This document shows positions 48 through 55,185 of a DNA stretch of 64,000 nucleotides, one piece after another. A model generated the notes under the pieces. It was not told the DNA's origin and made no database searches. It worked only from the letters and a program-made list of their open reading frames with translations. A program made the position numbers and the translations under genes. The DNA is from Armatimonadota bacterium (GTDB lineage: Bacteria > Vulcanimicrobiota > JACPDS01 > JBDRKI01). The stretch spans positions 277 through 64,276 of the forward strand of contig JBDRKI010000023.1 in NCBI GenBank assembly GCA_043814095.1, written 5' to 3'. The first letter of the stretch is position 1, and each line of letters opens with the position of its first letter.

Positions 48-86
48 TTAACAATTTAGTAACAATTTGTTAACATTTTGTTAATA
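48..86 (+). promoter_or_regulatory. Array of four TTAACA-like hexamers at exact 11-bp spacing (starts 48, 59, 70, 81) upstream of ORF 141-1487; PhoP/OmpR-type direct-repeat box candidate
   Basis: Read directly: TTAACA-atttag-TAACA-atttg-TTAACA-ttttg-TTAATA. TT(A/T/C)ACA direct repeats with 4-6 bp spacers are the B. subtilis PhoP~P consensus, and OmpR-family regulators bind 10-11 bp phased direct repeats. Confidence 0.45.
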
Positions 87-140
87 TGGGTATGTTAAGA
101 TATAAATGAGGTAAAATATACTTTTATAAGGCGGAATGTT

Positions 141-1487
141 TTGGATATAATAAGAAACATAAATAATTCAACATTTGTCTGGGGTCAGAATACAGGCTCT
201 GATGATATTTTTGTGCCTCCGTCAAGGGAAGAATGCAGAAAAACACTTAAGAAGATTAAGAGAGAAAAATATCCTAAAGATGTTCTTCCCCCTCCGGAAA
301 GAAAAGAGGCCGAAGATGCCGCAAGAAAATTGAAAGACCTGCGGATGGAAATTACAACAAAAGTTGCAAGACTTAATAACGGTGTTGTTCTTTTAGTAGA
401 CGCGCGTCCGGAGAATGTAGCGCGGATAATAAACCAGACCAGTCTAAGAAAAGCCATAGTAAATAATAAAGCAGTACTTGATTATTATGCATTTAACGGA
501 AAAAAATATTTAGCCGTTATTCCCAAGAAAATATGGGAAAAAGCGGATTACAGGAAAAACATGGATATATATTATGCCTCAGGCCAGTACCATAAGGATA
601 TAGTATCCGTAGCCCATAAAGTAAATGTCATTGATACCGCATATAATGCTTTATGTTCCCCTATAGATAAAGCATTTAATGAAAGAGCGAGTAAAATACA
701 GAATAAATATATGAGAAGATCGGTAAGTTTAATGTACGGTTTATTCAGAACCTCTGTGCTGATACAGATTTTATCAAAATGCCCGCATGTAGCTTCAATT
801 GCAGGCGGCTTATATATGGCCTCTTTCAGCGCACAGATTATTTTTGATTTCAGAGGATTGGTTGATTTTTTCAAAAATTCTTCCGATGTGGAACTTTATA
901 CAGCTCTTGGATCGCTTCTTGCAATAGGTGTTAATTTTAAAACCATAAGAGGTGCAATGCAGAGCAAAAACGGCGGAAAAAAGATAGTTCTTTCTCAAGA
1001 CGGCACAGTAAAAGAGTATAAGCTTGGCAGTAAAACCGCAGAGCATGTAGCGGCTAAAGATACAGGAGGCAGGATCGGCCAGAAAGCTGATGTGCCGGCA
1101 GAAAAACCGCCTGCTCAGAAATCGCAAACAGGACAATCTACAGAGAGAACAGAGACCAAAATAAATCTTAAAGAATTTACACGTGAAAAGGCTGTAAAAA
1201 AATACGACCAGGCAAGTACACCTGCGGATAAAATTAAAGTTGCGGAAGAAGTATCTAATGGTACCTATCCCAATATTTCGGTTAATTTATATGTACGGAT
1301 TGCGGAAGAACTTTTAAAAACACGGCCCCGAAATTATCATATGCGGCTAACGAAAATTTATAATAACATGGATAAAATGTGCAGAAAAGGTAAAATCAGC
1401 AATAGAGAAAAGCTGGAATTTATGAATTTATTAAAAGCAAATAATCATAAGGTTAATTCAAAAGGCCGGGTCGTAAAAATAAAATAG
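141..1487 (+). CDS. Hypothetical protein (448 aa), TTG start, central hydrophobic segment and Lys-rich C-terminus; no recognisable family
   Basis: Long ORF with coding-like composition, immediately followed by the next ORF; no motif I recognise. Confidence 0.5.
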   Translation: MDIIRNINNSTFVWGQNTGSDDIFVPPSREECRKTLKKIKREKYPKDVLPPPERKEAEDAARKLKDLRMEITTKVARLNNGVVLLVDARPENVARIINQTSLRKAIVNNKAVLDYYAFNGKKYLAVIPKKIWEKADYRKNMDIYYASGQYHKDIVSVAHKVNVIDTAYNALCSPIDKAFNERASKIQNKYMRRSVSLMYGLFRTSVLIQILSKCPHVASIAGGLYMASFSAQIIFDFRGLVDFFKNSSDVELYTALGSLLAIGVNFKTIRGAMQSKNGGKKIVLSQDGTVKEYKLGSKTAEHVAAKDTGGRIGQKADVPAEKPPAQKSQTGQSTERTETKINLKEFTREKAVKKYDQASTPADKIKVAEEVSNGTYPNISVNLYVRIAEELLKTRPRNYHMRLTKIYNNMDKMCRKGKISNREKLEFMNLLKANNHKVNSKGRVVKIK

Positions 1488-1513
1488 ACGGATTGAAATT
1501 TTGTGAGGAGCTT

Positions 1514-2905
1514 ATGAGTTACTCAAATAAAGAAATAATGAACCTGTTCTACGGCGAGATTATCTACGGCGGGACTAAACATAAGGTAGATAAAAATCAG
1601 AATAATAGATTTATCGCCGATAACAGCAGGATTTATACCGCTGTGAAAATGCAGGATAATATCTATAAGATTTATGCCCGTATAGAAAATAGACTTTACT
1701 GCGTAAAAGTAAATGACGCAGATGACAGTATTAAAAAGAAAATCAGTGAAGCTAAGAAAAAAGCATTTAAGAAAACCGTTGTTTCACAAGTCAAACCTAA
1801 ACCCGTAAAAAAAGCGGTAAAGAAGCAGATTCATGACGGATGGGCTGCAAATTTATTTGAAAGCGATATTATACGCGGAAACAGCAAAAATTATACCCGG
1901 AAAGGCGCTAAGTTTCATACCGCTTACGGCAGAGCATATAAAGTCAGTAAAAGGGGTTCGGGATACAGGGTATATATGTATATATGCGCTAACCAGGCGA
2001 TAGGCGATCGCGAATGCAAAAACGGAGAAGTATTTTATTATGATATAACAGATCCCATGGGGGACGTAAAAACTATTTTAGCAGGCAGGAAAACTCAAGA
2101 ATCCTCAAATACTCAAAGCGCCGGATCATCCGCACCTTCGCAGGCCGCACCTTCGCAGACAGAAACAATTACCAACCGGACATCTCCGGCACCGGAGATT
2201 CCGGATGCCACAAAGGGTGTCGCTAATGTAGAACAGCAGACAGTAAAACAGGGAGGCATTACGGTAAACGGTAATTTTAACGACCTTATTATTTATCCCG
2301 AAACCAATGAGGCAGTCGCGAAAGAAACGGTAACCGAAGTAGATCCGGAAACCGGAGAAACTTTTACTGAAGTGCGCGAGGTCCCCGCAGAGCTGGGACC
2401 CGGCGGGTTTTACTATAAAAAAGATGATTATCAGGCAGGAGCAACCCGGGAGGAGACTCCTCTTGCGGTAAGACACCTGGGAGGCGGTGAATATACCGAC
2501 GATTTAAGGTTTACCGGCACACAGGTAAGGATGTTCCGCGAAGAAAGCCCTAATGTGATTAACGAACTTAAAGCCGGATTTGAGATGTCAAAAACACCGG
2601 AAGAAAAGATTTTTTATGAATATAAGGTTTTGCAGAAAGCTTATGCCAGGGGAATATATAAAATATATATGTCGGAAAATACAGTTTTAGAGCTTTATTC
2701 TGAAAACGGCGCCTTAATAGCGGATAAGAATGATGCCTATGACGGGACAACAAAAGAGTCAACGAAATACACCCCGGAGAATACGGGAGATAAATTCTAT
2801 ATTACAAAAGAATTTAAAGATTATGTAATTTATAAGGAAATTAAAGAAAAGATTTATTATTCAGTCAAAGACGGCAGCATAGGGAAAGAATCTTTAAAAA
2901 GTTAA
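1514..2905 (+). CDS. Hypothetical protein (~464 aa) with Lys-rich and Ser/Ala/Pro-rich low-complexity linkers; unknown function
   Basis: ORF 1493-2905. ATG at 1514 is preceded by GAGGAG 5 nt upstream, so it is the preferred start. Begins 27 nt after the upstream gene stop. Confidence 0.5.
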   Translation: MSYSNKEIMNLFYGEIIYGGTKHKVDKNQNNRFIADNSRIYTAVKMQDNIYKIYARIENRLYCVKVNDADDSIKKKISEAKKKAFKKTVVSQVKPKPVKKAVKKQIHDGWAANLFESDIIRGNSKNYTRKGAKFHTAYGRAYKVSKRGSGYRVYMYICANQAIGDRECKNGEVFYYDITDPMGDVKTILAGRKTQESSNTQSAGSSAPSQAAPSQTETITNRTSPAPEIPDATKGVANVEQQTVKQGGITVNGNFNDLIIYPETNEAVAKETVTEVDPETGETFTEVREVPAELGPGGFYYKKDDYQAGATREETPLAVRHLGGGEYTDDLRFTGTQVRMFREESPNVINELKAGFEMSKTPEEKIFYEYKVLQKAYARGIYKIYMSENTVLELYSENGALIADKNDAYDGTTKESTKYTPENTGDKFYITKEFKDYVIYKEIKEKIYYSVKDGSIGKESLKS

Positions 2906-2929
2906 CATTTTGTTAACATTTTGTTAACA
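2902..2929 (+). promoter_or_regulatory. Three TTAACA hexamers at 11-bp spacing (2902, 2913, 2924) followed by an extended -10 (TGTTATAAT, 2947-2955)
   Basis: GTTAACAttttGTTAACAttttGTTAACA overlaps the stop codon of the upstream gene; a TGnTATAAT -10 lies 20 bp downstream. Confidence 0.45.
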
Positions 2930-2999
2930 ACTTTGAAAAGAAGGTATGTTATAATATAATAAAGAAAAAGAATATGTTTTTTAAAGACAGGAGATATAT

Positions 3000-3194
3000 A
3001 TGACAATGCATCTGAATTCAGGAGTTGAGAAAGTCGATAAAAATCTGCTTAAAAAATCATGGGCGGGGATTTTAAGAGAAGACAGTACAGGCAAGCTGGG
3101 CGAGAATATTCTCCGTTCAGGTTCTGAATCAGACCCGCAGATGGTATTAAGCAAGGCGGCTGAGCTGTTTTTTAATAAGACAGAACAGGCATAA
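3000..3194 (+). CDS. Small hypothetical protein (64 aa) driven by the TTAACA-array promoter
   Basis: AGGAG RBS 6 nt upstream of ATG; intrinsic terminator directly downstream (3223-3259). Confidence 0.45.
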   Translation: MTMHLNSGVEKVDKNLLKKSWAGILREDSTGKLGENILRSGSESDPQMVLSKAAELFFNKTEQA

Positions 3195-3222
3195 ATTATA
3201 CCTTATAATAAGGATATAATAT

Positions 3223-3259
3223 AAGCAGCCTTAAGAACAGGCTGCTTCTTTATTTTCTT
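3223..3259 (+). terminator. Rho-independent terminator
   Basis: AAGCAGCC-loop-GGCTGCTT stem followed by a T-rich run. Confidence 0.6.
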
Positions 3260-3313
3260 GACATCCTAACTTTTTGTGTTATAATCTTTATATTATTGTA
3301 CCTTGAATAATAT

Positions 3314-3594
<281 letters not shown>

Positions 3595-3597
3595 AGC

Positions 3598-3626
3598 ATA
3601 AAAATCCCGTTTTACGGGATTTTTTT
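3598..3626. terminator. Bidirectional intrinsic terminator between the tRNA and the macro-domain gene
   Basis: AAAAATCCCGTtttACGGGATTTTTTT. Confidence 0.6.
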
Positions 3627-4139: not shown

Positions 4140-4293
4140 ACCATACCTCCATTGCCGTATTATATTAATATATAATTTATTTAAGTAAAAATAATTAAAA
4201 ATCCTTGTTTTTGCAAAAAAAGGAACTTTTTAATAAAGATATAATTTAATGAGTCTATGCGAAAACATACAATTATTCGGAGGTTTTAAGGCT

Positions 4294-5937: not shown

Positions 5938-5946
5938 GAGGCGTTT

Positions 5947-7203
5947 ATGAAGCATAATATTCTTGCCATGATTATGGCCGGCGGAAAAGGCTCAAGACTT
6001 TATCCTTTAACCATGACAAGGGCCAAACCCGCGGTGCCTTTCGGCGGCAAATACAGGATCATAGATTTTACCCTGAGCAATTTTATAAATTCCGGTATTT
6101 ACTCAATATATGTTTTAACCCAGTTTAAATCGCAATCCCTGACTACACATATAAGGGACGGGTGGACATTCGGGTCGGGGCTTGTAAAAGATCATTTTAT
6201 AACGACAGTGCCGGCCCAGATGAGGATAGGGGAGAGCTGGTATAAAGGGACGGCTGATTCAATATTCCAGAACCTGTCTTTTATAGAAGCGCGCCGGCCT
6301 GATGTAGTTGCCGTTTTCGGGGCAGACCACATTTACCGCATGGATATAAGACAGATGATTAATTATCATAAAGACGCTAAATCCCATATAACAATAGCGG
6401 CTTTGCCGGTTCCTGTCGAACAAGCGACTGAATTCGGGGTTATACAGGTTGATAAAAACTGGCGTGTTATAGGTTTCCAGGAAAAACCAAAAAATCCCAA
6501 GCCGATACCGGGAAGGCCCGATACTGCCCTTATTTCCATGGGGAACTATATTTTTGATACGGATATTTTACTTAATGAGGTTGCAAAAGACGCCGAGATG
6601 GATACAGAGCATGATTTCGGCAGATCAATACTGCCTAAGGTATATAAAAAGTTAAAAGTACATGTATATAATTTCCAGAATAACCGAATCCCCAGAGTAA
6701 TAAAAAGCGAAAGAAATGATTACTGGAGGGATGTAGGCTCGCTCCAGGCATATTATGACGCCCATATGGAGCTTTTAGGGTCGCATCCGCACTTTGATTT
6801 ATATAATTATTACTGGCCCATAAGAACCGTAAGCTACAGCACCCCGCCTTCCAAGATTGTTATGCGCGATAGCGCAAATGATTCGGTTGAGAATTCAATC
6901 ATATCCGAGGGCTGTATTATAAACGGGGGGAGGATTGTAAATTCGGTTCTGGGCAGGAATGTTGTAATAGAAAAGGGCGCGGTTGTGGAGAATTCAATAT
7001 TACTGAATAATGTTAACATAGGTAAAAACGCGCAGGTAAAAAAAGTTATAATTGACAAAAAAGTAAGGGTGAAAACAGGCGAAAAAATAGGGTATGATCT
7101 TGAAAAAGACGCCAGGAAATATTTTGTAAGCGAAACGGGGATTGTCGCGATACCGGAAGCGGAAGGCATACCGCCTTTATGCAGGTATACCTTCGGTTCA
7201 TAA
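5947..7203 (+). CDS. glgC: Glucose-1-phosphate adenylyltransferase
   Basis: MIMAGGKGSRLYPLT...KPAVPFGG(K)YRIIDF N-terminal signature. Confidence 0.85.
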   Translation: MKHNILAMIMAGGKGSRLYPLTMTRAKPAVPFGGKYRIIDFTLSNFINSGIYSIYVLTQFKSQSLTTHIRDGWTFGSGLVKDHFITTVPAQMRIGESWYKGTADSIFQNLSFIEARRPDVVAVFGADHIYRMDIRQMINYHKDAKSHITIAALPVPVEQATEFGVIQVDKNWRVIGFQEKPKNPKPIPGRPDTALISMGNYIFDTDILLNEVAKDAEMDTEHDFGRSILPKVYKKLKVHVYNFQNNRIPRVIKSERNDYWRDVGSLQAYYDAHMELLGSHPHFDLYNYYWPIRTVSYSTPPSKIVMRDSANDSVENSIISEGCIINGGRIVNSVLGRNVVIEKGAVVENSILLNNVNIGKNAQVKKVIIDKKVRVKTGEKIGYDLEKDARKYFVSETGIVAIPEAEGIPPLCRYTFGS

Positions 7204-7217
7204 CCGCGGAGTTTTTT

Positions 7218-7994
7218 ATGCGTGATGTGCAGAGCGAAAAATCTAAAATAAATATAGCGCTGGATAAAGTCGGGGTAAAGGATTTAAGTTATCCCATTAT
7301 TGTTCTTGACAGGAAGAATAAAATCCAGCACACGGTCGGCAGGATAGATCTTTATGTAAACCTGCCCGATAAGTTCAGGGCCACCCATATGAGCAGGTTT
7401 GTTGAGGTATTAAACCAGCATCACGGCAATATTCATATTGATAAATTCCCTGAGATATTAAAAAAACTCAAGAAGGTTTTAAAAGCGAAAGAAGCGCATG
7501 TTAACGTAGAATTCCCTTATTTTATTGAGAAGCAGGCTCCTGTATCAAAAGCTAAAAGTTTAATGGAGTATAAGTGTGTTTTTATAGGGGGAAGCAGTCT
7601 TAAAGACGACTATATTATAGCAGTTAAAGTGCCGGTTAACGCTTTATGCCCCTGCGGGAAGCAGATGTGCGGCCATTCGCATAACCAGAGAGGGCTTGTA
7701 ACTCTTCAGGTCAGGTTTAAAAAGTTTATATGGATCGAAGACCTTATTAAGCTTGTGGAAGAGAGCGCAAGCAGTGAAGTTTTCTCCCTATTAAAGAGAG
7801 AGGATGAGAAAGCAGTTATAGAGAAAGCCTATAAAAACGCGCGTTTCGTGGAAGATATCGCAAGGGAAGCTGCATGGAAGCTTGAGAAAGATCCCAACAT
7901 TGTCTGGTATTGTGTTGAATCGGAAAACTATGAAAGCATCCATAACCATAACGCTTACGCGCAGGTTTCCAAACATAAGAGAAGAAAAAAATGA
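7218..7994 (+). CDS. folE2: GTP cyclohydrolase FolE2/MptA family
   Basis: NLPDKFRATHMSRF motif typical of COG1469; start taken at the internal ATG. Confidence 0.65.
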   Translation: MRDVQSEKSKINIALDKVGVKDLSYPIIVLDRKNKIQHTVGRIDLYVNLPDKFRATHMSRFVEVLNQHHGNIHIDKFPEILKKLKKVLKAKEAHVNVEFPYFIEKQAPVSKAKSLMEYKCVFIGGSSLKDDYIIAVKVPVNALCPCGKQMCGHSHNQRGLVTLQVRFKKFIWIEDLIKLVEESASSEVFSLLKREDEKAVIEKAYKNARFVEDIAREAAWKLEKDPNIVWYCVESENYESIHNHNAYAQVSKHKRRKK

Positions 7995-8063
7995 TCTGTG
8001 GTATAATTTGGGGGTAGATTATATAAACGCCCTGTAAGGCGTAATTTTGTAAGGAGGATAAAT

Positions 8064-9527: not shown

Positions 9528-9545
9528 ATAAACAGGAATTAAACA

Positions 9546-9572
9546 AAAAGGGCGGTAAATCCGCCCTTTTTA
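9546..9572 (+). terminator. Rho-independent terminator after pepD
   Basis: AAAGGGCGGtaaatCCGCCCTTTTT. Confidence 0.65.
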
Positions 9573-9592
9573 ATAAACAAGAGGTGTCTAAA

Positions 9593-29831: not shown

Positions 29832-30019
29832 ATTATTATTACCTCCGTTTTAAAGTGTAAAAAGCTTCTATTTAAATAAAAACTATTCCTTTATTTTTGA
29901 ATATATTGCTTACCGATAATTATATAAAGGATATAAGGTATAAAAGGAGAAAAAAATATAAAATTCATTCTTTTTATTACTGCAACCCATTATATTATTA
30001 CTTTAATAAGGTGAGAATT

Positions 30020-33000
30020 ATGCGCAGAAATTTCCAAACTTTACTTATATCAGCATTGTTTTGTTTAATACTGGCAGGCATAACTTATACATCTGCTGTT
30101 TCCGGCACATGGAATGTTGTTTTTGTAATAAGTAAACTTCCTGCAGAAGCGGTATCGGGTACAATTTTAGATGTAAAAATAGGGGATACCTCTTTTGCTC
30201 TTCCTGCTCAGGCCGGCGCAAAGAAGGTGGTTCAGGTTACTTATAAAGGCGCTGATGACAGCCAGCTTAAAGCCAAAACTAACAGACATATAAAAAACCT
30301 TCCTTTTTCCGTTAAATTAAAGAAAGGAAACAGTGTGCTTGCGGAAAGATCTGAAAGTTATCTGCCTTGTTATGCTTTAAACTTCGGCACTGGCGGTCAG
30401 ATCGGTTTTTTAGTGGTCCCGGTTTATAAAAGAGGCGGATCTTCCGCGCCTTCGGTTTCGAAATCCGGCACGGAAGCGCCCGGTGCGGGAGTACCCGGTG
30501 CGGGAGTACCCGGTGCGGGTTCGGCTTCCGGTATATCGGAAGGTATAGGTGAAGGCAGCGGCAATGTAGATGTTTCTACTCTTCCTCCGGCAGGAGGTGC
30601 TGAATTAACCGGTATATGGAAGCCCGAAGTTGGTTACCACTGGATTTATCAAAGAGCAGGCGGCAGAAAAGAATCTTTATGGAAGCCTGCAGACTGGCAC
30701 ATGAACCAGCTTGCCGTTGCGTATGATCTTCCGGGTATTTTTGAAAATAAAGTTTTAAGAACCGAAAATCTAAATGGAAAATTATGTTGGGTAATAGAAT
30801 CAAAACAGACAGAAGAGCAGATACTTGTAAAAGACGGTGTTGAGTATCCCTGCAGGAAGCAGACCCTTACATTTTTAAACTGGATTGATTGTAAAACAAA
30901 TAAAATATTAAAAAGTTGTTTTGAAGAGAAGACCCTTTATTCTCCTGTTCCTTCATGGTTAAAGGATTATTTTAAACCTCTTAACAGCAGAAGAGAAACA
31001 GTATCTACCAATATGAATTATATGGCGGGAACAATGACAGAGCGTGAAATTGTTTATAACGAGGATTTAACGACAAAGAAAAAAGATACAGCTAAAACTG
31101 TTAATATCCGCCAGTTCGGATATCCCGATGCGGATTTTACGAATGCTCTTAATTCGCCTTTAGCCGTGGGCGGCAGTTATAAAATGTTTAATGTCTCGGG
31201 CACGGCGAACGCGTCTACTCCGGCGGGCCTTTACCCTTGCTATGTTTTGCAGTCCGGTCCGGCTTCTATATATGCGACACAGGCTAACCATTTTATAGTA
31301 AAATTTGTTATTCCGTACCGGCAGGGTCAGACTGAAGAAAGGGAACTTATTTACGCTAACTTTAATATAGGGCAGCCCCCGGCGCAGGTTGCGGCAATGG
31401 AGGTTATTGAACTTAAGCGCTGCAGGGAATATTATGAATTAGAAGATGCCGGCAGGTGGGTAAATCTTACCTATAAGATAAAGAACAGGGGCAATAAATA
31501 CGGGTTTGTATCCTATGACGTTAAACTTTATAAAAAGGATGAGCCCAACAGTACCATGCAGGTTGATTCAGGTGAGATTAAAACTCTTTCTGCCAGTAAA
31601 ACTGTTGAGAAGAAGAGCAAGTTCTGGCTGGACGGCGATAATAAAAAGCCGCCGGGCATATATGTAGCTAAAGTTATCCTTTATGATGAGAACAAAAATG
31701 TTCTTGATACGGAACTTGTTGAATTTCAGGTTTACACAAAACCGGAGCTGAGCATTCTGGAAGTAAAGCTTTTTAAGGATAAGTTTTTTCAACCCGAAGA
31801 TCAAGTTTCGGTAGTATGCGGGGTGGAAAATCTGGGATATGACGGCGATATGAAAGTCAAATCTCAGATTGAAGATAAAGACGGAAAAATTTACGCGGAA
31901 GGTTTTGCCGGGAAAAAGAATTTTTACGGCAAGCAAAACAAAGAGTATGTCAGCCAGTATGAAAGTTACGAGCATATTAAGATTGACCTGCCGGAAGATA
32001 TCCCTCCGGGAGAGTACAGGATAAAGACAGCCGCTTACTGGGTAAAGCCGAATGCAAGGGGCGAGGAGAAGCAGGATGAGGAGATGTTCTTCCCCGTTGT
32101 TGTCGGTGAAATTCTAGTTTCGGATATAATCCCTTTGCGGGGTTCACAGAGATTCCCGTTTAAGTTAAAGGCTGTTTATACCAATAAGAACGATATGCCG
32201 GCTAAGGGAGTTACCGGATATGTCGGGAACACGCCGTTTACGCTTGATGCGGCTGATAACGCGGATAAAAATCTTTTAGACGGCAAAGAATACATTTATA
32301 AATTCATTCCCGCAGATGCCGGCCGTACTTTTAAATGGGGAAAGCATGAATATAAGGCAAATGCGGAGGTTAAGGATAAAAGTTATACGTCGCCTTCAAA
32401 GAAGTTTGAGATAGGTCCTTATGAGTATATAGAAGAAGATGAAACTTATATTAAAAATACTTACTGGTATAAAGAATCCGGCAAAAGGGATAAAAAATAC
32501 GATTTTTCCGGAGGGGTAAATTATAAGGGTAAAAAATATTACCCTGTCTGTATAACGCGGGGAGGTTCTCCCAACGGACATCTCTGGATTGATGAAAACG
32601 AGCTTGTGCTTGAAGATGAGAACATAATAAAGGCATTGTTCGTTTATGTTGTTGTATGCGGCGACGGAAGCAAGATTCCGGAAGAGATAGCCGATTATAA
32701 CGCGAAAGTTGATGAAGACGCGGAAGCAATGAATGATATGATAGACGAAGCAAAGTTCGGTAAAGTGGCGGAGCTTTCTTCAAATATTATAGGCGTTGTT
32801 TTTTCCGTTGAAACCCTTGCGACCGGCGGCGCCGGGGCGGTTGCGAAAATAGGCAGCGTTCTGGCGGTAATTGATATTGTGGCGCAGACAAAATCAAGCA
32901 AAGATATTTTAACTGACTTATGCGCCATGGACGAGAACAGTTTAGGCAACGCGGCTGATGTTGAAAACTTCCAGCAGATAGAAAAGCTTCAGGTTAAGTC

Positions 33001-33712
33001 TCCGGTTAATGAACCGTTTAAAACAGGGTACGGGGAAGTGTCGCTTACAGCCGGCACCATTAAAGAAGCGGCGGAAGTTATACAGATGTATAACGCAAGA
33101 CAGACACAGCTCAAGAGTTTCGCGAGCGCGTTTGCCGCAAGTCAGAGCAAGGCGCTTATTAACAAGGCGATGTTGAAATCAAAAATGGCGTCAGCGGGTT
33201 TTTCTATGGGAACGGCAATCGCGGCATGGATAGAAAGCCCTGGTGATATTGCTCCTGACGCGTTATACCTTGCGCTGTGCTATCAGAAAAGGTGCATCTT
33301 AGATAAAAAGATAGTAGAAATTTATAAAAATGCCCGGGACGGGATATCAAGGGATGAAGAAGTAAATGATCTTATACTTCTTCCGATAAACAAGGCGCTT
33401 TCGGCGTCTATGGCCGCCGTTATTCTGGAAGAAGGCGCGTCCATACTTGATAAGCGCGGGAAAACCATATCGGGCGCGCTTATAAGAGGGTCGCTCTGGG
33501 CGGCTAAAAAAGCGGGCATTACCGACAAAGACTACGGCGACAGGATAGAGGAGATAAGGGAAGAAGGCGCCTCTATGGCAAGAAGTCTGTCAAATATGTA
33601 TATGGATGAATATGAACATAACGATAAAGTAATTTCGTACCAGCTAAGCAATGCAATGACGCGGATTAATCTCGGTGAGCAGTTAAGAAATACGTTTGAC
33701 AGAAAGATATAG
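30020..33712 (+). CDS. Very large secreted protein (~1230 aa), unknown function; contains (PGAGV)x3 repeat and a C-terminal ~350-aa alpha-helical region
   Basis: ATG at 30020 with AAGGTGAG RBS and a signal peptide (the ORF-track start at 29897 is rejected); no recognisable catalytic motif. Confidence 0.55.
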   Translation: MRRNFQTLLISALFCLILAGITYTSAVSGTWNVVFVISKLPAEAVSGTILDVKIGDTSFALPAQAGAKKVVQVTYKGADDSQLKAKTNRHIKNLPFSVKLKKGNSVLAERSESYLPCYALNFGTGGQIGFLVVPVYKRGGSSAPSVSKSGTEAPGAGVPGAGVPGAGSASGISEGIGEGSGNVDVSTLPPAGGAELTGIWKPEVGYHWIYQRAGGRKESLWKPADWHMNQLAVAYDLPGIFENKVLRTENLNGKLCWVIESKQTEEQILVKDGVEYPCRKQTLTFLNWIDCKTNKILKSCFEEKTLYSPVPSWLKDYFKPLNSRRETVSTNMNYMAGTMTEREIVYNEDLTTKKKDTAKTVNIRQFGYPDADFTNALNSPLAVGGSYKMFNVSGTANASTPAGLYPCYVLQSGPASIYATQANHFIVKFVIPYRQGQTEERELIYANFNIGQPPAQVAAMEVIELKRCREYYELEDAGRWVNLTYKIKNRGNKYGFVSYDVKLYKKDEPNSTMQVDSGEIKTLSASKTVEKKSKFWLDGDNKKPPGIYVAKVILYDENKNVLDTELVEFQVYTKPELSILEVKLFKDKFFQPEDQVSVVCGVENLGYDGDMKVKSQIEDKDGKIYAEGFAGKKNFYGKQNKEYVSQYESYEHIKIDLPEDIPPGEYRIKTAAYWVKPNARGEEKQDEEMFFPVVVGEILVSDIIPLRGSQRFPFKLKAVYTNKNDMPAKGVTGYVGNTPFTLDAADNADKNLLDGKEYIYKFIPADAGRTFKWGKHEYKANAEVKDKSYTSPSKKFEIGPYEYIEEDETYIKNTYWYKESGKRDKKYDFSGGVNYKGKKYYPVCITRGGSPNGHLWIDENELVLEDENIIKALFVYVVVCGDGSKIPEEIADYNAKVDEDAEAMNDMIDEAKFGKVAELSSNIIGVVFSVETLATGGAGAVAKIGSVLAVIDIVAQTKSSKDILTDLCAMDENSLGNAADVENFQQIEKLQVKSPVNEPFKTGYGEVSLTAGTIKEAAEVIQMYNARQTQLKSFASAFAASQSKALINKAMLKSKMASAGFSMGTAIAAWIESPGDIAPDALYLALCYQKRCILDKKIVEIYKNARDGISRDEEVNDLILLPINKALSASMAAVILEEGASILDKRGKTISGALIRGSLWAAKKAGITDKDYGDRIEEIREEGASMARSLSNMYMDEYEHNDKVISYQLSNAMTRINLGEQLRNTFDRKI
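30479..30520 (+). repeat. 15-bp tandem repeat CCCGGTGCGGGAGTA x2.8 within the large CDS
   Basis: Read directly; encodes PGAGVPGAGVPGAG. Confidence 0.85.
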
Positions 33713-37625: not shown

Positions 37626-37900
37626 GGCCGGCATGGGCGCTTGCTTGCCGGTGAAAGTCCGATACGGAGGTTGATAGCGCCAACAGTTAGCCAAAGACAA
37701 GGGTGTCCGTTGTGAGGCGGAATTTCAAGGAAGTCGGAGGCAAAGCTTCGGTCTGAGGAACACGAACCGCATAAAAGGCATAGCTCTGCGGGCGAGTTTG
37801 CACAACAAAACGAAGCCCCAAACTATCCGAAGCAGGCAGTGTAAATGCGGCAGATATATGAAGCGAAAGTAAGGGCTAACAAAGGAAGTCACGGTATAGA
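37626..37900 (+). mobile_element. GC-rich structured RNA segment resembling group II intron domain I (internal fragment)
   Basis: GTGAAAGTCCGATACGGAGG and AAAGACAAGGGTGTCCGTTGTGAGG parallel the Ll.LtrB domain I blocks GAAAGCUGAUACGGGAAC and AAAGACAAUCGGGUACGACUGAG in the same order. No GUGYG 5' end was found. Confidence 0.4.
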
Positions 37901-38109: not shown

Positions 38110-39387
38110 ATGATTAAAGAAAGAAAAATATTCGCCAAATTGCTGAAAGAAGCTTCCGTGCCGAAAGTGTCTATAATTTTGGGCTCGAGGCAGGTGGGAA
38201 AAACCACCGCTTTGGAATACGTGTTTGAAACCATCTGCGGGAAAGGAAAGCATAAGGGCATATTTTTAGATTTAGATATTTATTCTAACTTTGAAAAAAT
38301 TTCTTCCTACGAAAATGCCGTTAATACTTTTAAATTGGCGGGGTATAACCCTGAAAGCAGGGAAAGGTTCTATGTTTTTCTTGATGAGTTTCAGAGGTAT
38401 AAAGATTTAACGGTCATAATAAAAAATATATATGATCATCATAAAAACATAAAAATATATGCTACCGGTTCTTCTTCCATAACGATAAAATGCAATGTTC
38501 AGGAGAGTTTGTCGGGAAGAAAAATAATTACATATTTATTTCCCTTGAATTTTGAGGAATTCCTTATTTTTAAAAATAAAAAAGACTTACTGGCGGCGCT
38601 TAAAAATGTTTCATCGCTTAGAGGGGAAGACCTTTTCGCCCCCTCCAAAGAACTTTTTGAAAATTTGGAAGAATTTATAAGGTTTGGGGCATACCCCGAA
38701 GTGGTATTGGCGGGGAATAAAAAAGACAAGACGGAAATTTTGAGGAGCATTTTTGATTTATATGTAAAAAAAGAGCTGGTGGAATATTTAAAAATAGAAA
38801 AAATATACGAAACCAAACGGCTGATTCAATATCTCGCGGTAAATAATGCGCAAAAAATCAAATATCAGAATATTTCACAGTTTGTGGGTTTTTCCCAAAA
38901 AACGGTTAAGCATTATATAGAAATCATAAAAGAAACCTTTTTGCTTGTCGAAATAAAGCCGTTTTTCGCGAATAAAAACAAAGAATTGGTAAAAATACCA
39001 AAAATATATTTTGTAGACACGGGTGTTGCGAATTTCTTTACCAATAATTTTAATAAATTGGAATTAAGAAACGATTCGCCGTTTTTATTTGAAAACTTTG
39101 TTTTATCCGAATTTCTAAAAAACGGTTTCATCGAGGACAATATTAAATTTTGGCAGGATAAAAATAAAAACGAAGTGGATTTTATATTGGAAAAGAGCTC
39201 AAAGGTCACGGCAGTGGAAGTTAAATTTAAGAAAAATCTTAAGGCCTCGGATTTTTCTTCGCTTAATTTGTTTAAGAAGGACTACCCCGGCACGGACTGT
39301 GTTTTGATTAACCTGTCTTCGCAGAAAAAACACAAAAACATAAAAACGATGCTGCCGTATAAAGCGGCATATGCGGCAGAGATATAG
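38110..39387 (+). CDS. AAA_14 ATPase with C-terminal DUF4143
   Basis: GSRQVGKTT Walker A near the N-terminus; architecture typical of the widespread AAA+DUF4143 'ATPase' family. Confidence 0.75.
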   Translation: MIKERKIFAKLLKEASVPKVSIILGSRQVGKTTALEYVFETICGKGKHKGIFLDLDIYSNFEKISSYENAVNTFKLAGYNPESRERFYVFLDEFQRYKDLTVIIKNIYDHHKNIKIYATGSSSITIKCNVQESLSGRKIITYLFPLNFEEFLIFKNKKDLLAALKNVSSLRGEDLFAPSKELFENLEEFIRFGAYPEVVLAGNKKDKTEILRSIFDLYVKKELVEYLKIEKIYETKRLIQYLAVNNAQKIKYQNISQFVGFSQKTVKHYIEIIKETFLLVEIKPFFANKNKELVKIPKIYFVDTGVANFFTNNFNKLELRNDSPFLFENFVLSEFLKNGFIEDNIKFWQDKNKNEVDFILEKSSKVTAVEVKFKKNLKASDFSSLNLFKKDYPGTDCVLINLSSQKKHKNIKTMLPYKAAYAAEI

Positions 39388-40338: not shown

Positions 40339-41253
40339 TTACGCCAGAGGCAGACGGAATGTAAATTTAGTCCCTTGCTCTATACCGCTTTCCAGTTTTA
40401 TCTCTGAAGCGTGGCCTTCTAGATAAGTTTTCACTATATATAATCCGAGTCCCGTGCCTTCGCTTCTTTGTCCTTTTATCCGGGTAAATTTTTTAAATAC
40501 ATCCTGCTGTTTTTCCTGGGGGATCCCGCATCCTGTATCCGAGACTTCAAAAGCTGCTTTATCCTTATGCCTGCGGCACGAGATTTTTATTGTCCCTCCC
40601 ATAGGGGTATATCTTAATGCATTATTTACAAGATTGTAGAAAATATGGCGCAGTTTATCATAGTCGGCATGAACGGTTGTGTCTTTGCCTCCGGAAAAAG
40701 TAAGATTAACCTGTTTGAAATCGGCATAAGGCTTAAAAATATAATTTAATTCCTGGAATAAGTTTTCCACTTCAAAATTTTCAAAGTGGTAATCTGATTT
40801 ACCCGAATCTATTTTAGCCGCGCCGGTTACATTGTTTACCATATAAAGGAGCGCGTTTTCGGAAAATCTCATGCCTTCTATACATGAGAGTTTTTCGTTG
40901 CCTTCCAGCCGGGGCAGGAGATCTGTAGTGGCTATTATGGTGCTTAATGGGGTTTTAAGGTCGTGTATAAGCATTGACAGGAACTCTTCCCGGGCTTTCT
41001 GGAGTTCTTTGTCCGCTTCTTTTCTTTCTTTGATCTGTTTTTTAAAGGGAAGTATCATAAAAAAATAAAGAGCGGGGAAAAGAGTTATAACAAGGAGGCC
41101 TGAGTCAATTCCCAGCTCTATCCATACAGGATAGGGCAGGTAGCGTATAAAAAGCATTATAAGGATATCGCATATAATTATCGCAAGTATTATAATGCCG
41201 AGCAGAAGCCAGAGTTTAGGTTCCGTATATTTTTTTTCTGTTGTATCTATCAT
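40339..41253 (-). CDS. Sensor histidine kinase (2 TM, HisKA and HATPase_c); no cognate response regulator adjacent
   Basis: H-box LIHDLKTPL; N, G1, G2 boxes (NLVNNALRYT, DTGCGIP, GLGLYI). Confidence 0.8.
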   Translation of the reverse strand: MIDTTEKKYTEPKLWLLLGIIILAIIICDILIMLFIRYLPYPVWIELGIDSGLLVITLFPALYFFMILPFKKQIKERKEADKELQKAREEFLSMLIHDLKTPLSTIIATTDLLPRLEGNEKLSCIEGMRFSENALLYMVNNVTGAAKIDSGKSDYHFENFEVENLFQELNYIFKPYADFKQVNLTFSGGKDTTVHADYDKLRHIFYNLVNNALRYTPMGGTIKISCRRHKDKAAFEVSDTGCGIPQEKQQDVFKKFTRIKGQRSEGTGLGLYIVKTYLEGHASEIKLESGIEQGTKFTFRLPLA

Positions 41254-45271: not shown

Positions 45272-45277
45272 AAAGAG

Positions 45278-46753: not shown

Positions 46754-46856
46754 AGGTCATACTTTTGTCAATATTGTTTCACAGGCAGGAAAACTTACGT
46801 TATTATGTAAAATTATATCTTTAACCTTGTTATTATTTTAATTAAAGGGTTGGGAT

Positions 46857-47507: not shown

Positions 47508-47543
47508 AGGAAAAAAAATAAAGAAAAGGTATTAATTTAAATT

Positions 47544-50707: not shown

Positions 50708-51921
50708 TAGTCCAGAAATACGGCGGCACATCTGTCGCTACCGCCGACCTTATAATGAGTGTCGCAAAGCGCATAAAAAAGATAAAGAAAGAAAAGAAAG
50801 CCGATATAGCCGTTGTTGTCTCAGCCATGGGAAAGACAACCGATGAGCTTGTCTCCCGCGCGAAAAAGATAAATGAAAATCCGAGCATGCGCGAGATGGA
50901 TATGCTTCTCTCCTGCGGTGAGACAATGTCAATTGCCCTTCTTACAATGGCGCTTCATAAAATCGGGGTGGATGCCATATCCCTTACGGGCGCGCAGGTC
51001 GGGATAGTTACCGACACACGTCATACCGAAGCAAAGATTATACATATAGACACAAGCAGAATAAAGAAGCATCTTAAAGAGGGAAAGGTTGTTATAGTAG
51101 CGGGCTTTCAGGGTGTAAGCCAGGAGAATGAGATAACAACGCTTGGCAGGGGCGGTTCGGATACTTCCGCAGTTGCTCTGGCCGCGGCGCTTTCTGCTGA
51201 TGTATGCGAGATACTTACCGATGTTGACGGGGTTTATTCCGCTGATCCCAATACGGTTACAGAGGCAAGAAAGATTAAAAGATGCAGTTATGACGCTGTT
51301 CTTGAGATGGCATTTATGGGGGCGAAAGTACTTCATCCGCGCTCTGTTGAGATCGCCAGAAAGCATAAACTGCCGCTCCATGTAAGGTCAAGTTTTAACG
51401 ATGAAGAAGGAACAATTATTGAGGAGATAAAGGATATGGATATTGAGAAAAACATAGTAAGAGGAATCGCTCACAATAAAAATATCGTGAAAGTTTCAAT
51501 TGTAGGGGTGCCGGACCAGCCCGGTGTGGCCGCAAAAATATTTAAAGGGCTTGACGAAAAAAATATACGCATAGGCCTTATAGTACAGGCGCCCAGCCAT
51601 GACAATAGAACGGATATAACATTTGTCGCCAATTCCAAGGACATTGATATTGTTAAAGAAACGGTTGATTTAATAGTGGAAAAAATAGGGGCAAAGGAAG
51701 CCGTATATAATGAAGATGTAGCGACAATATCAATAGTATGGGAAGGAATTTCCGGTTCCAGCCAGATATCAGCGAAAATATTTGAAGTCCTGGCAAAAAA
51801 GAAAATAAATATAGATGTTATAAGCACATCTACTATAACAATAACATGCATAATTGAAAAAGATAAGCTAAAAGAAGCGGTAAAAGCGCTTCATGAAGAA
51901 TTAATAGAGAAAGAACTGTAA
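50698..51921 (+). CDS. lysC: Aspartate kinase with C-terminal ACT domains
   Basis: VQKYGGTSV N-terminus and kinase core; tandem ACT domains. Confidence 0.85.
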   Translation: MELIVQKYGGTSVATADLIMSVAKRIKKIKKEKKADIAVVVSAMGKTTDELVSRAKKINENPSMREMDMLLSCGETMSIALLTMALHKIGVDAISLTGAQVGIVTDTRHTEAKIIHIDTSRIKKHLKEGKVVIVAGFQGVSQENEITTLGRGGSDTSAVALAAALSADVCEILTDVDGVYSADPNTVTEARKIKRCSYDAVLEMAFMGAKVLHPRSVEIARKHKLPLHVRSSFNDEEGTIIEEIKDMDIEKNIVRGIAHNKNIVKVSIVGVPDQPGVAAKIFKGLDEKNIRIGLIVQAPSHDNRTDITFVANSKDIDIVKETVDLIVEKIGAKEAVYNEDVATISIVWEGISGSSQISAKIFEVLAKKKINIDVISTSTITITCIIEKDKLKEAVKALHEELIEKEL

Positions 51922-51938
51922 TAATAAGGAGCTTTATT

Positions 51939-52979
51939 ATGTCAGACAAGATTTCAGTCGGTGTATTGGGAGCTACCGGTACAGTAGGGCAGATGTTTAT
52001 AAATTTATTAAGAGACCACCCGTGGTTTGAGGTAAAAGAGATTGCGGCATCAGACAGGTCAAGAGGTTCGGTTTACTCCGCCCTTATGAATGACCGATGG
52101 AAGATGACAAGTCTTATTCCTGCGGGTATAGAAGGAATGATTGTAAAGGGATGTGATGATGACCTCTCCTCAAAGATTCTTTTTTCAGGGCTTGATTCAT
52201 CGGTTGCCGGCGAGATTGAGGAGTTTTACGCGCAGAAAGGGCATATTGTTATAAGCAACTCAAGAAACCACAGGATGGGGGAACATGTTCCGCTTCTTGT
52301 GCCGGAAGTAAACCATGACCATACCGGACTTTTAAAATACCAGAACCGCAGGGGAAAGATAGTTACAAACCCCAACTGTTCCACAGTGGGTATGGTGCTT
52401 GCTCTTGCCCCAATAGAGAAGAAATTCGGGATTGATAAGATAATCGTTACAACAATGCAGGCATTAAGCGGGGCGGGTTACCCGGGCGTGCCTTCAATGG
52501 ATATATTAGATAACCTTATCCCTTATATATCTGGTGAAGAGCCGAAGATGGAGACCGAAACATTGAAGCTTTTCGGCAAACTGGAAGACGGTAAAATTAA
52601 ATTCGCGGATATTAAGATAAGCGCTTCATGCAACAGGGTTGCCATTACGGACGGCCATACCGAGTGTATATCTTTTTCACTGAAAAATAAGGCGTCTATA
52701 GAGGATTTGAAAAATGAGATAAAACAGTTTAATCCTTTAAAAGACATGAAGCTTCCGTCTGCGCCCAATCCACCTGTTATAATAACGGAACAGGAGAACA
52801 GGCCCCAGCCCAGGTATGACAGGAACCGCTCAAACGGCATGTCAGCTGTTATGGGCAGGTTAAGGGAATGTCCTGTTCTTGGTTATAAAATGACGATACT
52901 TTCACATAATACGATAAGGGGAGCGGCAGGTTGCGCGATACTGAACGCCGAGCTTTTAAAAGCAAAAGGATTGATATAA
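51939..52979 (+). CDS. asd: Aspartate-semialdehyde dehydrogenase
   Basis: GATGxVGQ NAD-binding motif; catalytic Cys block NPNCST. Confidence 0.85.
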   Translation: MSDKISVGVLGATGTVGQMFINLLRDHPWFEVKEIAASDRSRGSVYSALMNDRWKMTSLIPAGIEGMIVKGCDDDLSSKILFSGLDSSVAGEIEEFYAQKGHIVISNSRNHRMGEHVPLLVPEVNHDHTGLLKYQNRRGKIVTNPNCSTVGMVLALAPIEKKFGIDKIIVTTMQALSGAGYPGVPSMDILDNLIPYISGEEPKMETETLKLFGKLEDGKIKFADIKISASCNRVAITDGHTECISFSLKNKASIEDLKNEIKQFNPLKDMKLPSAPNPPVIITEQENRPQPRYDRNRSNGMSAVMGRLRECPVLGYKMTILSHNTIRGAAGCAILNAELLKAKGLI

Positions 52980-53034
52980 ATATACATTTTTTTAAAAATA
53001 CGCTATAATATAAATATCCAACTTTTTTAATGAG

Positions 53035-53493
53035 GTGTTTATGAGTATAAGATATGTAGCTTATGACCTTCCGTTTTCAAAAACCGAGAGCTTGTATAAA
53101 GAAAAATCCATTATTTTTAACCATAAGGAAGGCTTTAATTCTGAAGGGGTTAAAATATTTTATAAAAACGGGGAGCCTGACAAGATAGTATACTGGAGCG
53201 AAAGAATAATGGAAGGCGATTATGAAGCCATTAAATATAAATTCAGGTATTATCCTAAAAAGTCCGATGAGAAGTGTCTTGAAGAAGATATAATCTCTCT
53301 CGGCGGTGAATATAAATATAAAGGCAGTATCCCCATGACAGAGCATAATAAAGAAGGATTTATAGAGCATCTTAAAACAGCCCGTAAGCGGCTGGTTGAT
53401 AAAAACGGGAAACACCTGCATATGAAAGCATTAAAGGATGCCATTGAAAGAATAACTTCAGTAAAATGCGCCGAGTACGCTGACAGGAATTAG
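53035..53493 (+). CDS. Hypothetical protein (152 aa)
   Basis: ORF only. Confidence 0.4.
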   Translation: MFMSIRYVAYDLPFSKTESLYKEKSIIFNHKEGFNSEGVKIFYKNGEPDKIVYWSERIMEGDYEAIKYKFRYYPKKSDEKCLEEDIISLGGEYKYKGSIPMTEHNKEGFIEHLKTARKRLVDKNGKHLHMKALKDAIERITSVKCAEYADRN

Positions 53494-53576
53494 GGAATTT
53501 TAAATTAAAATGACCTATACCAGAGTATAATTATTAAAGCAGGTTGACACTCTCCTGAATAAATTCAAGGAGATTC

Positions 53577-54014
53577 TCAGGCTACGCTTGCGGCAGTCCG
53601 CTGCGTTAGCGCCCGAAGGTTCTGCCCGAACCTAAGAATATTTATTGCGGCATTTAAGTCTCTGTCTAATTCTATTCCGCAGAAAGAACAATGATGCACG
53701 CGCACTGACAAGTCCTTGGATACATTCTTTCCGCAATTTGAGCATTTTTGACTTGTACCATGAGGATTTACTTTAATTACTATTCTACCAGCCTCTTCCG
53801 CTTTATAGCATAGCAAATTAAAAAACATACCCCATGAGCAATCAGCAATAGACTTACTCAAATGCCTGTTTCTAACCATACCTTTGATATTCAGATTTTC
53901 TATAGCAAGAATTTCCACATCAATTTCTTTGGCTTTTTCTTCCACAATCTGTCTTAATCTGTTTTTAACTTTGCCGGTTAAAACAGGCTTTCTCCTTTTA
54001 GGACACCATATCAA
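53577..54014 (-). pseudogene. tnpB: IS200/IS605-family tnpB C-terminal fragment (RuvC-III plus zinc finger only)
   Basis: CSNCG...CSFCG zinc ribbon and the TnpB C-terminal pattern; only 145 aa remain. An imperfect palindrome CTCCTGAAT-AA-ATTCAaGGAG lies at 53540-53570, just past the fragment's 3' end. Confidence 0.65.
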
Positions 54015-54202
54015 ATGATAGTTGAGAAGATAGATATGGTGGCCGAGCCTGTTTGTATTTCATGTTGACATTATATCATATATCAACGAATTAATCTATC
54101 GAATAGAAAAACAAGGGAGCCATTCATCCCCTGTTTAAAAACAGAAGCTTTCTGGCTAGTATTTTGTAAAAAGCTCACCTCTCGGCGGCAGATGAGGTTA
54201 TC

Positions 54203-54547
54203 TTATTTTTCCAGATCCATTAATATTTTTTCGAAAATAGATTTTAATCGCGGGATTTCTTTTTTGATTGTTTCCCATACAATGTTTAATTTAACCCCAA
54301 AATATTCATGAATAAGCTTGTCTCTCATGCCTGTCATATCTTTCCATGGTACTTCGGGATATTTTTTCTTTATATCTTCTGGAATTTTTTTTACAGCTTC
54401 ACCTATAATCTCAAGTGCTCTTACGGCGGCAAATGAAGTTTTATCATCTTTTGCAAACTGTTCGTCGGTCATGCCCTCGGTAAAATTTACTGCATTATCA
54501 ATGGCATTGATAATATCCTCAATATAATCCCCTACTTCTCTTTTCAT
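54203..54547 (-). CDS. hepT: HEPN toxin HepT (DUF86)
   Basis: R-x4-HxY motif (RDKLIHEY). Confidence 0.75.
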   Translation of the reverse strand: MKREVGDYIEDIINAIDNAVNFTEGMTDEQFAKDDKTSFAAVRALEIIGEAVKKIPEDIKKKYPEVPWKDMTGMRDKLIHEYFGVKLNIVWETIKKEIPRLKSIFEKILMDLEK

Positions 54548-54843
54548 AACGGCACAACCTCATTTAATATATGTCTGCCTATTCTTGGCTTTAATGATGA
54601 TTTTTCCACAAGATCAACTTTTACACCCAAAAGTTCGCTTAAATAATTTTCCATATTTACAAATTTTAAAAGTCCTATTAAAGCATTCTTTTCAAATTCC
54701 ACAAGTATGTCCAAATCGCTTTTTATATTGTTTTCCCCTCTTAAATATGAGCCAAAAATACCGATTTCTTTTATGCCGTACTTTTTTTTCAATTTTTCCT
54801 TATGATTGTTCAATATCCGTTTTATTTCGTCCAGAGTTTTCAT
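54544..54843 (-). CDS. mntA: Nucleotidyltransferase antitoxin MntA
   Basis: GSYLRGENNIKSDLDILV NTase motif; 4-nt overlap with hepT. Confidence 0.75.
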   Translation of the reverse strand: MKTLDEIKRILNNHKEKLKKKYGIKEIGIFGSYLRGENNIKSDLDILVEFEKNALIGLLKFVNMENYLSELLGVKVDLVEKSSLKPRIGRHILNEVVPL

Positions 54844-54872
54844 CTCAAATTATGCCCTCCACTAGATCAAAG

Positions 54873-54894
54873 AATCGCTTTAATTAAAGCGATT
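54873..54894. promoter_or_regulatory. Perfect 22-bp palindrome AATCGCTTTAATTAAAGCGATT 30 bp upstream of mntA; candidate TA operator
   Basis: Read directly. Confidence 0.5.
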
Positions 54895-55146
54895 ATATCA
54901 AAAATATACTGCTAAGTCAAAATAATATATATTTTTGTTAAATACGAAAATCAGGAAGCGGCAATATAGGCGCCATTAATGCCGTGAGAGCCTTAGGATT
55001 TGTCCCGGGGGTAACTGTCCTTATGGCAGATATTGTGACATACTCACGGGGTTAAAACTCCATGCATCTTTGGTTTTCAGATGCTAGAGCTTCCTGCTTC
55101 AACGATACTTGACTCGTAGACCATTACCCCTCAAGGGGGTAAAATG

Positions 55147-55185
55147 TTAACAAATTGTTAACATATTTGTAACATTTTTGTAACA
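55147..55185 (+). promoter_or_regulatory. Four TTAACA/GTAACA hexamers at exact 11-bp spacing (55147, 55158, 55169, 55180) followed by a TATAAT -10
   Basis: Same architecture as the arrays at 48-86 and 2902-2929. Confidence 0.45.

Follow-up and report, generated by a model that had tools for sequence, protein, structure and literature searches.

Phased (G/T)TAACA direct repeats before three transcription units of an uncultured bacterium: candidate tandem operators of an OmpR/PhoB-family regulator

Three arrays of head-to-tail (G/T)TAACA units, phased at 11 bp, stand in front of three transcription units in the 64-kb stretch of DNA analysed here (contig JBDRKI010000023.1, NCBI label 'Armatimonadota bacterium'; the whole stretch of 64,000 nucleotides is called the window throughout). 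We favour, with moderate confidence, the explanation that these arrays are tandem operators for one OmpR/PhoB-family (winged-helix) response regulator, which would activate transcription from class I and class II positions. The evidence comes from the arrays themselves, from their register with the promoters behind them and from the recurrence of one array before orthologs of its target gene, which encodes a predicted zinc peptidase.

Results

Three arrays with an exact 11-bp period

Read directly, array 1 (48..86, plus strand) has four units, at 48, 59, 70 and 81 (TTAACA, GTAACA, TTAACA and a degenerate fourth unit, TTAATA), and array 2 (2902..2929, plus strand) has three perfect GTTAACA units at 2902, 2913 and 2924, the first of which overlaps the stop codon of the preceding gene, ORF1493 (TAA, 2903-2905). 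Array 3 (55147..55185, plus strand) again has four units, at 55147, 55158, 55169 and 55180 (TTAACA twice and GTAACA twice). The step between neighbouring units is exactly 11 bp throughout all three arrays. A first-pass annotation of this DNA had described three phased arrays of TTAACA at these places; the places and the exact period stand, while the unit is (G/T)TAACA rather than TTAACA throughout. To compare the arrays with chance expectation, the pattern TAACA-N5-KTAACA-N5-KTAACA was searched with at most one mismatch, with 100 dinucleotide-preserving shuffles of the window as the control. The window contains six overlapping matches, all within the three arrays, and the 100 shuffles contain none. 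The corresponding two-unit pattern gives 13 matches vs. 1.55 ± 1.11 in the shuffles, and the sole two-unit match away from the arrays is a one-mismatch match within a permease gene. The three arrays are genuine and far above chance.

The arrays share one register with the −10 elements

Since the housekeeping promoters of the window are sigma-70-like (TTGACA-16-TGTTATAAT before a tRNA gene, TTGACT-17-TATAAT before a toxin-antitoxin pair), a search for TATAAT-like −10 elements behind the arrays is justified. At site 3 the promoter scan finds TTTACT-17-TATAAT (55194..55222, plus strand; −35 at 55194, −10 at 55217; score 10/12) in front of the peptidase gene. Sites 1 and 2 show no −35 element, and because both carry the string GGTATGTTA we place a TG-extended −10 at 93..101 (plus strand; TGtTAAGAT, hexamer at 96) for the promoter of ORF141, and within the −10 region at 2947..2960 (plus strand; TGtTATAAT, hexamer 2950-2955) for that of the 64-aa open reading frame (ORF). 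Counted from these hexamers, the units begin 48, 37, 26 and 15 nt upstream at site 1, 48, 37 and 26 nt at site 2, and 70, 59, 48 and 37 nt at site 3, so that in all three arrays the unit starts lie 15+11k nt before the predicted −10, a spacing rule that the orthologous promoters follow as well. The offsets differ only by multiples of 11, and the three rows are therefore in one helical register with the putative −10. The uniform distance of about 20 bp from array to −10 given in the first-pass annotation does not hold, as the last unit and the −10 are separated by 9, 20 and 31 nt with the arrays bounded as they were there. Its description of the arrays as promoter-proximal and oriented like the genes downstream is borne out: each array has the orientation of the gene behind it, and the position of array 3 is kept in orthologous promoters.

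At its first unit, array 1 borders directly on a divergent promoter, which lies on the minus strand within window positions 1-47 (TATAAT at 27..22, ribosome-binding site AAGGAGGTGA at 10..1), and the operator may also act on a divergent gene beyond the window edge.

The array travels with the peptidase gene

Orthologs of the 182-aa peptidase-like protein encoded behind array 3 were found at 20 loci in 12 clusters, confined to a small set of metagenomic lineages. Arrays precede the ortholog in nine of ten lineages, in which protein identity ranges from 35 to 58% and contig G+C from 38% to 61%, and in eight of the nine the last unit begins 37-38 nt before the −10, the remaining one having a distance of 26 nt. 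The closest loci (L001/L002/L003/L125/L126, 58% identity) have four units and a promoter nearly identical to site 3. The more distant ones each have three units at 11 bp directly upstream of the gene, namely L004 (46%), L006-L009/L132 (40%), L122/L130 (38%, 61% G+C), L123/L128 (42-43%, 56% G+C), L129 (39%), L131 (38%) and L137 (35%). In this series, a (C/G/T)ATAAT hexamer follows 37 or 38 nt after the start of the last unit, the 26-nt distance being that of L137. When eight orthologous promoters are aligned, the conserved blocks are the three units, CTTTA at the −35 position, TG and ATAAT, and the sequence between them is variable.

The neighbourhoods of the orthologs are unrelated to each other: the gene lies after rpoBC and beside a LytR-CpsA-Psr gene in one case, beside a GGDEF gene in another, and between a Na/H exchanger gene and a phosphoglucomutase gene in a third. 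As neighbours differ completely between lineages, the array must travel with the peptidase gene. While the protein diverged by more than 60% and the gene moved repeatedly within genomes, the spacing between operator and −10 would have been preserved. Because it recurs at this distance in nine of ten ortholog lineages, array 3 is best read as a selected cis-element and not as a dispersed repeat.

That the arrays might nevertheless be copies of a dispersed repeat, or the end of a mobile element, is suggested by the position of array 3, which adjoins a toxin-antitoxin pair and an insertion-sequence remnant at a break of synteny with L001. The first-pass annotation had itself named membership of a dispersed repeat family as the outcome that would overturn its reading; repeat analysis around the arrays detected no common flanks beyond the units and the 9-nt −10 string and no extended repeat family, and the arrays stay with orthologous genes whatever the neighbourhood. 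We therefore regard this origin as extremely unlikely. The synteny break itself spans window positions 53577-55146 and L001 positions 7172-7475, and to the left of array 3 the window carries the HepT/MNT toxin-antitoxin pair (54203-54843) and an IS200/605 TnpA/TnpB remnant (53577-54014).

In L001/L002, the peptidase gene has a counterpart of the ORF141 operon next to it in divergent orientation, and a separate five-unit array points toward this operon; in L001 there are 9 nt between its last unit and TATACT, a geometry like that of site 1. In the window the two transcription units lie 55 kb apart. L001 also carries G+C-rich short tandem repeats, CCCCTAG-like and GCGCGAGG-like (7280-7395 and 7560-7600), located between its two arrays and in the peptidase leader and absent from the window.

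Tandem recognition of an asymmetric core

A profile built from 32 units of nine arrays reads T-G-[T/G]-T-A-A-C-A-W-T-T. TAACA is kept in 30-31 of the 32 units, and the TG flanking this core gives way to TT or AT in several lineages. In the spacer there is no more than an A/T bias, with a switch between A-runs and T-runs; in high-GC relatives G and C enter it (ACTTG, TGGCT, TTTTC), and TAACA is retained. The position following the core is split evenly between A and T (16/16). Since TAACA is constant while the flanking TG and the spacer vary, the profile argues for tandem recognition of an asymmetric core rather than for a symmetric dimer site or a purely structural curvature element. Two other descriptions of the unit were rejected: a palindrome (TGTTAACA bound by a symmetric dimer), as its left TG is not conserved, and a TnrA/GlnR-type site (TGTNA-N7-TNACA), as the spacing does not fit.

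The same data bear on the idea that no dedicated protein is involved, so that the arrays would serve as curved DNA or UP-element-like sequence made of phased A/T tracts, or as overlapping weak promoters of the form TTAACA-N17-TAACAT. The spacers are indeed A/T-rich and in helical phase, and the promoter scan gives TTAACA-17-TAACAT inside arrays 1 and 3 a score of 9/12. Conservation, however, resides in the TAACA core and not in the spacer, which accommodates G and C in the high-GC relatives, and the equal use of A and T after the core means that TAACAT is not selected as a −10. We consider this explanation very unlikely.

The same pattern precedes phosphate and cell-wall genes in other genomes

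A collection with one genome per species was scanned for KTAACA-WWWWN-KTAACA-WWWWN-KTAACA. The scan returned at least 112 loci, from Bacillota, Bacteroidota, Elusimicrobiota, Spirochaetota and others; none was labelled Armatimonadota among the matches listed. Among these same matches, no array lies inside a long same-strand ORF, and 86 arrays have an ORF start no more than 350 nt downstream. A Pfam scan of 67 downstream ORFs among the matches listed identified PstS four times (L019, L029, L040, L118), a Na/Pi cotransporter three times (L018, L035, L049), PiT three times (L028, L030, L076) and a phosphonate-binding protein once, together with two OmpR-type regulators, three SH3/NlpC-P60 hydrolases and one M23 peptidase; the NlpC/P60 genes that carry such arrays are those of Lachnospiraceae. 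Phosphate importers amount to few genes per genome, and for this reason their share of about one sixth represents a very large enrichment. Measured from where the last unit begins, −10-like hexamers in the matches listed cluster at distances of 15, 26-27, 37-38, 46-49 and 59 nt, which is the register seen in the window. The target classes are the classic ones of PhoB/PhoP and WalR, and the (G/T)TAACA-N5 pattern appears to be a cross-phylum signature of OmpR/PhoB-family operators that marks both phosphate regulons and wall-hydrolase genes.

These matches are also an argument that the window arrays are PHO boxes in the strict sense, through which a regulator of the PhoB/PhoP/SphR type would induce the genes under phosphate starvation, a possibility raised in the first-pass annotation. 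Not only does the three-unit pattern precede PstS, Na/Pi cotransporter and PiT genes in other phyla, but in the pstS promoters of L029, L019 and L040 the last unit lies, by reading, 15, 26 and 38 nt before the −10, in the same register as in the window, and PHO boxes are built of 11-nt repeat units (PMC4415409). On the other hand, none of the three target units of the window is phosphate-related, and no pst, pho, phn or ugp gene was found among the Pfam-annotated ORFs of the 64 kb or in those loci of the relatives whose genes were checked. Further, the conserved core target is peptidoglycan-peptidase-like, and the motif is common to the non-Pho regulators WalR and ArcA, so that it cannot identify the signal. 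On balance, control by phosphate limitation seems rather unlikely.

A further set of such promoters was observed in the Elusimicrobiota metagenome-assembled genome JBDRON01, in which at least five (L016, L054 with two sites, L067, L075) consist of three to four CTTAACA units, 9 nt and TATACT. The first ORF behind the array belongs to no Pfam family at four of these sites and gives a weak phosphoglucomutase-like match at L016. These promoters appear to form a larger regulon of the same design.

The putative targets

The conserved core target is the gene at 55285..55833 (plus strand), which encodes the 182-aa protein (ABIH00_01735) with a C-terminal hedgehog-N/LAS (M15-like) zinc-peptidase domain; a terminator-like palindrome (55858..55892, strand undefined) closes its transcription unit. 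Residues H123, H128, D135, H175 and H177 are invariant. In the structure model, most of residues 71-160 have a pLDDT of 81-92, interrupted by a low block at 121-130 (52), and the N-terminal helical region is poorly modelled. A Foldseek comparison with the PDB gave Ihh/Shh-N as top matches (E 3e-5) and VanY next, meaning that the N-terminal signalling domains of animal Hedgehog proteins outrank VanY as structural matches of this bacterial protein. Since its best matches are hedgehog N-terminal domains followed by VanY, the protein is predicted to be a compact LAS-family zinc peptidase of the bacterial hedgehog-like kind. One of the three targets thus has a LAS/hedgehog-type peptidase fold with zinc ligands intact, and it may act as a cell-wall hydrolase. 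Inspection of the protein sequence for an export signal revealed no signal peptide. Of the label 'FlgJ-like/M15 peptidase' in the first-pass annotation, the second half agrees with the fold; the first was dropped, as there is no Rod-binding or flagellar family match in Pfam or NCBIfam and no flagellar neighbour among the ortholog loci with gene tables.

A longer paralog of the peptidase (328 aa), with a hydrophobic N-terminal segment resembling a signal peptide or anchor, is encoded in L133 (9479-11160) and also in L134, L136 and L145; its gene is followed by a four-unit array (two units perfect) in front of a PilZ-domain gene. The peptidase gene itself adjoins a GAF-GGDEF gene in the window, L001/L002, L003 and L125. 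This adjacency to PilZ and GGDEF genes hints at a possible link to c-di-GMP signalling.

The other two putative targets are an operon (141..2905, plus strand) composed of ORF141 (448 aa, ABIH00_01470, predicted membrane segments) and ORF1493 (470 aa), and the 64-aa ORF (3000..3194, plus strand), which has an AGGAG ribosome-binding site and is followed by a terminator-like hairpin at 3223-3247. None of the three proteins belongs to a Pfam or NCBIfam family, and a homolog search for ORF141 returned itself alone. The counterparts of ORF141 and ORF1493 in L001/L002 are weakly similar (30% and 24% identity to those of L001), and similarity between the 64-aa ORF and its L001 counterpart (63 aa) is not detectable. 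All three ORFs appear to evolve fast.

The 182-aa and 448-aa proteins match ABIH00_01735 and ABIH00_01470 without any difference, and these are encoded on a 74-kb contig. The window is ordinary chromosome: its G+C content is 41%, and it carries chromosomal genes such as those for PEPCK, a GlgC-like protein, FolE2, a purine/oxamate catabolic cluster, threonine-pathway enzymes and LeuRS. One contig with a 42%-identical peptidase ortholog encodes TonB and a TonB-dependent receptor, and the lineage is apparently diderm.

Introns in the window

Downstream of the 64-aa ORF, behind a promoter at 3258-3285, lies a tRNA-fMet (CAU) gene (3313-3593, plus strand), missed by ARAGORN, which is split in the anticodon loop by a group I intron of about 230 nt (Rfam RF00028 at 3327-3533). 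The homologous intron of L001 carries a PDDEXK_5 ORF, probably a homing endonuclease; the window copy has no ORF. Group II intron domain 1-4 matches occur at 55957-56245, directly after the peptidase gene and with no long intact ORF, and a 425-aa ORF (38110-39387) comes after a second intron match at 37706-37877.

Discussion

Cumulatively, we consider the arrays to be, with moderate confidence, operators for a single OmpR/PhoB-family regulator. In its phosphorylated form, this regulator would bind head-to-tail with one monomer per (G/T)TAACA unit, and the 11-bp period would align all monomers along the same side of the double helix, where they would form either two dimers or an oligomer of three units. 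The promoters of sites 1 and 2 have a TG-extended −10 and no −35 element, and there the row would extend into the −35/spacer region, as in the class II geometry of PhoB. At site 3 the row would end 8 nt upstream of a weak −35 (TTTACT), as in class I geometry, and a class I position upstream of a weak −35 is also proposed for its orthologs. In either arrangement RNA polymerase would be recruited or stabilised at the promoter, and the genes would be switched on together. The regulon would thus have three parts, the gene of the hedgehog/LAS-type peptidase as its conserved core, the two-gene operon of large fast-evolving proteins, and the small ORF. The sequence comparison shows the arrays and their conservation, orientation and phasing against conserved −10-like elements; which class of protein binds them, that it activates and does not repress, and which signal it follows are inferred.

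Several observations weigh against this proposal. Among the 51 larger window ORFs covered by the Pfam annotation (which left out a few, including a 1271-aa ORF at 29897-33712), no OmpR-type (Trans_reg_C) regulator was found; the signalling genes seen are those for an orphan histidine kinase (40339-41253, minus strand) and for the GAF-GGDEF protein. Likewise, no OmpR-type regulator is linked to the peptidase orthologs in the related loci whose genes were checked, where L004 and L123 have hybrid kinases and receiver-only proteins as neighbours and L128 has nothing of the kind. In L127 the peptidase promoter has retained its −35 and −10 and lost the array. The 63-aa ORF of L001 has a consensus promoter with no array, which makes site 2 the least conserved of the three. 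The −10 elements at sites 1 and 2 were placed by reading the sequence, and for site 2 the promoter scan offers an alternative, TTGAAA(2933)-16-TATAAT(2955-2960). Finally, protein families other than OmpR/PhoB can also bind phased direct repeats.

Accommodating some of these points, a protein of another DNA-binding family might occupy the arrays, perhaps as a repressor; a ribbon-helix-helix or other small iteron-polymerising repressor and a Spo0A/NarL-type protein are candidates, and ParR of plasmid R1 binds 11-bp iterons. A missing linked OmpR-type gene in the scanned window ORFs and the checked related loci is what such a binder would lead one to expect, and a placement over the −35/spacer region, such as the units have at sites 1 and 2, fits repression too. 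The best-conserved array, however, lies wholly upstream of a weak −35, as is typical of activation, the targets of the motif elsewhere belong to OmpR-family classes and include two OmpR-type regulator genes, and the window shows no partition or plasmid context. We hold a binder of this sort to be distinctly unlikely. Below an activating OmpR/PhoB-family regulator we rank repression, a binder that is not a response regulator, DNA curvature and a dispersed repeat as progressively less likely.

With regard to the signal, a cell-envelope stimulus appears somewhat more likely than phosphate limitation, since the only conserved target is peptidoglycan-peptidase-like and no phosphate gene is linked. 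Taken further, the arrays could belong to a phylum-level, WalR-like circuit of envelope homeostasis with an origin outside the Firmicutes, in which an OmpR-family regulator is dedicated to a hedgehog-type LAS peptidase devoid of a signal peptide and to fast-evolving large proteins. This is an unlikely scenario, and if it were true the peptidase would be the anchor of a previously unrecognised conserved module of cell-wall control.

The proposed architecture is a textbook one, and the novelty lies in this particular case, an operator conserved together with its gene in a lineage that is uncultured and apparently diderm. For this lineage, in which there is almost no regulatory knowledge, the arrays would provide a concrete cis-regulatory code, and they join three transcription units into one proposed regulon anchored on a conserved bacterial hedgehog-like peptidase.

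Comparison with known systems

One-turn direct repeats had been named in the first-pass annotation as the general binding mode of OmpR/PhoB-family regulators, and head-to-tail repeats of a 6-7-nt core are well documented (PMC4415409, PMC3798270, PMC4168254). Of the features of such operators, the window arrays have both the head-to-tail repeats of about one helical turn and the register with the predicted −10. A close parallel is provided by the PHO boxes of E. coli PhoB, B. subtilis PhoP, Streptomyces PhoP and cyanobacterial SphR. Like the window arrays, these are 11-nt direct repeats with a 6-7-nt core and an A/T-biased remainder, in two to five head-to-tail units on one face of the DNA, with the row replacing or abutting the −35. 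The boxes of PhoP in B. subtilis are repeats of TT(A/T/C)ACA that lie between −60 and −20 on the coding strand. The 11-nt units of PHO boxes comprise seven conserved and four less conserved positions, and the effector domains of PhoB bind to them head-to-tail (PMC4415409). The window arrays differ in that no phosphate gene is among their targets and that they belong to a different phylum.

ArcA operators of gamma-proteobacteria have TGTTA as the core. They also consist of two to five direct repeats at 11-bp spacing, and for E. coli this holds for most ArcA sites, measured centre-to-centre (PMC3798270). Unlike the window regulator proposed here, ArcA mostly represses, its repeats overlapping the core promoter, whereas the best-conserved window array is upstream of the −35; ArcA also belongs to an unrelated taxon and responds to redox, an unrelated signal. 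A similar core, TTTAACA, was obtained by DAP-seq for PhoP of Riemerella anatipestifer (Bacteroidota) and resembles the ArcA motif (PMC9603813). That PhoP is, in contrast, a global regulator with hundreds of peaks, and a repeat architecture was not described in the study concerned (PMC9603813). Since this hexamer is read by no fewer than four OmpR-family regulators with different wiring, the signal cannot be told from the motif, and because the (G/T)TAACA-N5 signature is shared by several of them, a 'PhoP box' call from sequence alone is unsafe; TTAACA-N5 arrays need their regulon context before they are given that label.

A further system for comparison is WalR/VicR (YycF) of Firmicutes. To our knowledge, WalRK is confined to Firmicutes. 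According to a preprint on the C. difficile Wal system, it is present in all of them (10.1101/2022.04.01.486798). The window host is of another kind, as it bears the label Armatimonadota, a related contig encodes TonB-dependent outer-membrane proteins, which likewise speaks against a relative of Bacillus, and no walRK genes occur in the window. The window arrays also differ in having 3-5 units rather than 2. Nevertheless, the reverse complements of the window units, TGTTAA and TGTTAC, fit the WalR/VicR consensus TGTWAH-N5-TGTWAH (PMC4168254) exactly and with the same 11-bp period, and just as the targets of WalR are peptidoglycan hydrolases, the conserved target in the window is, by fold, a predicted LAS-type peptidase.

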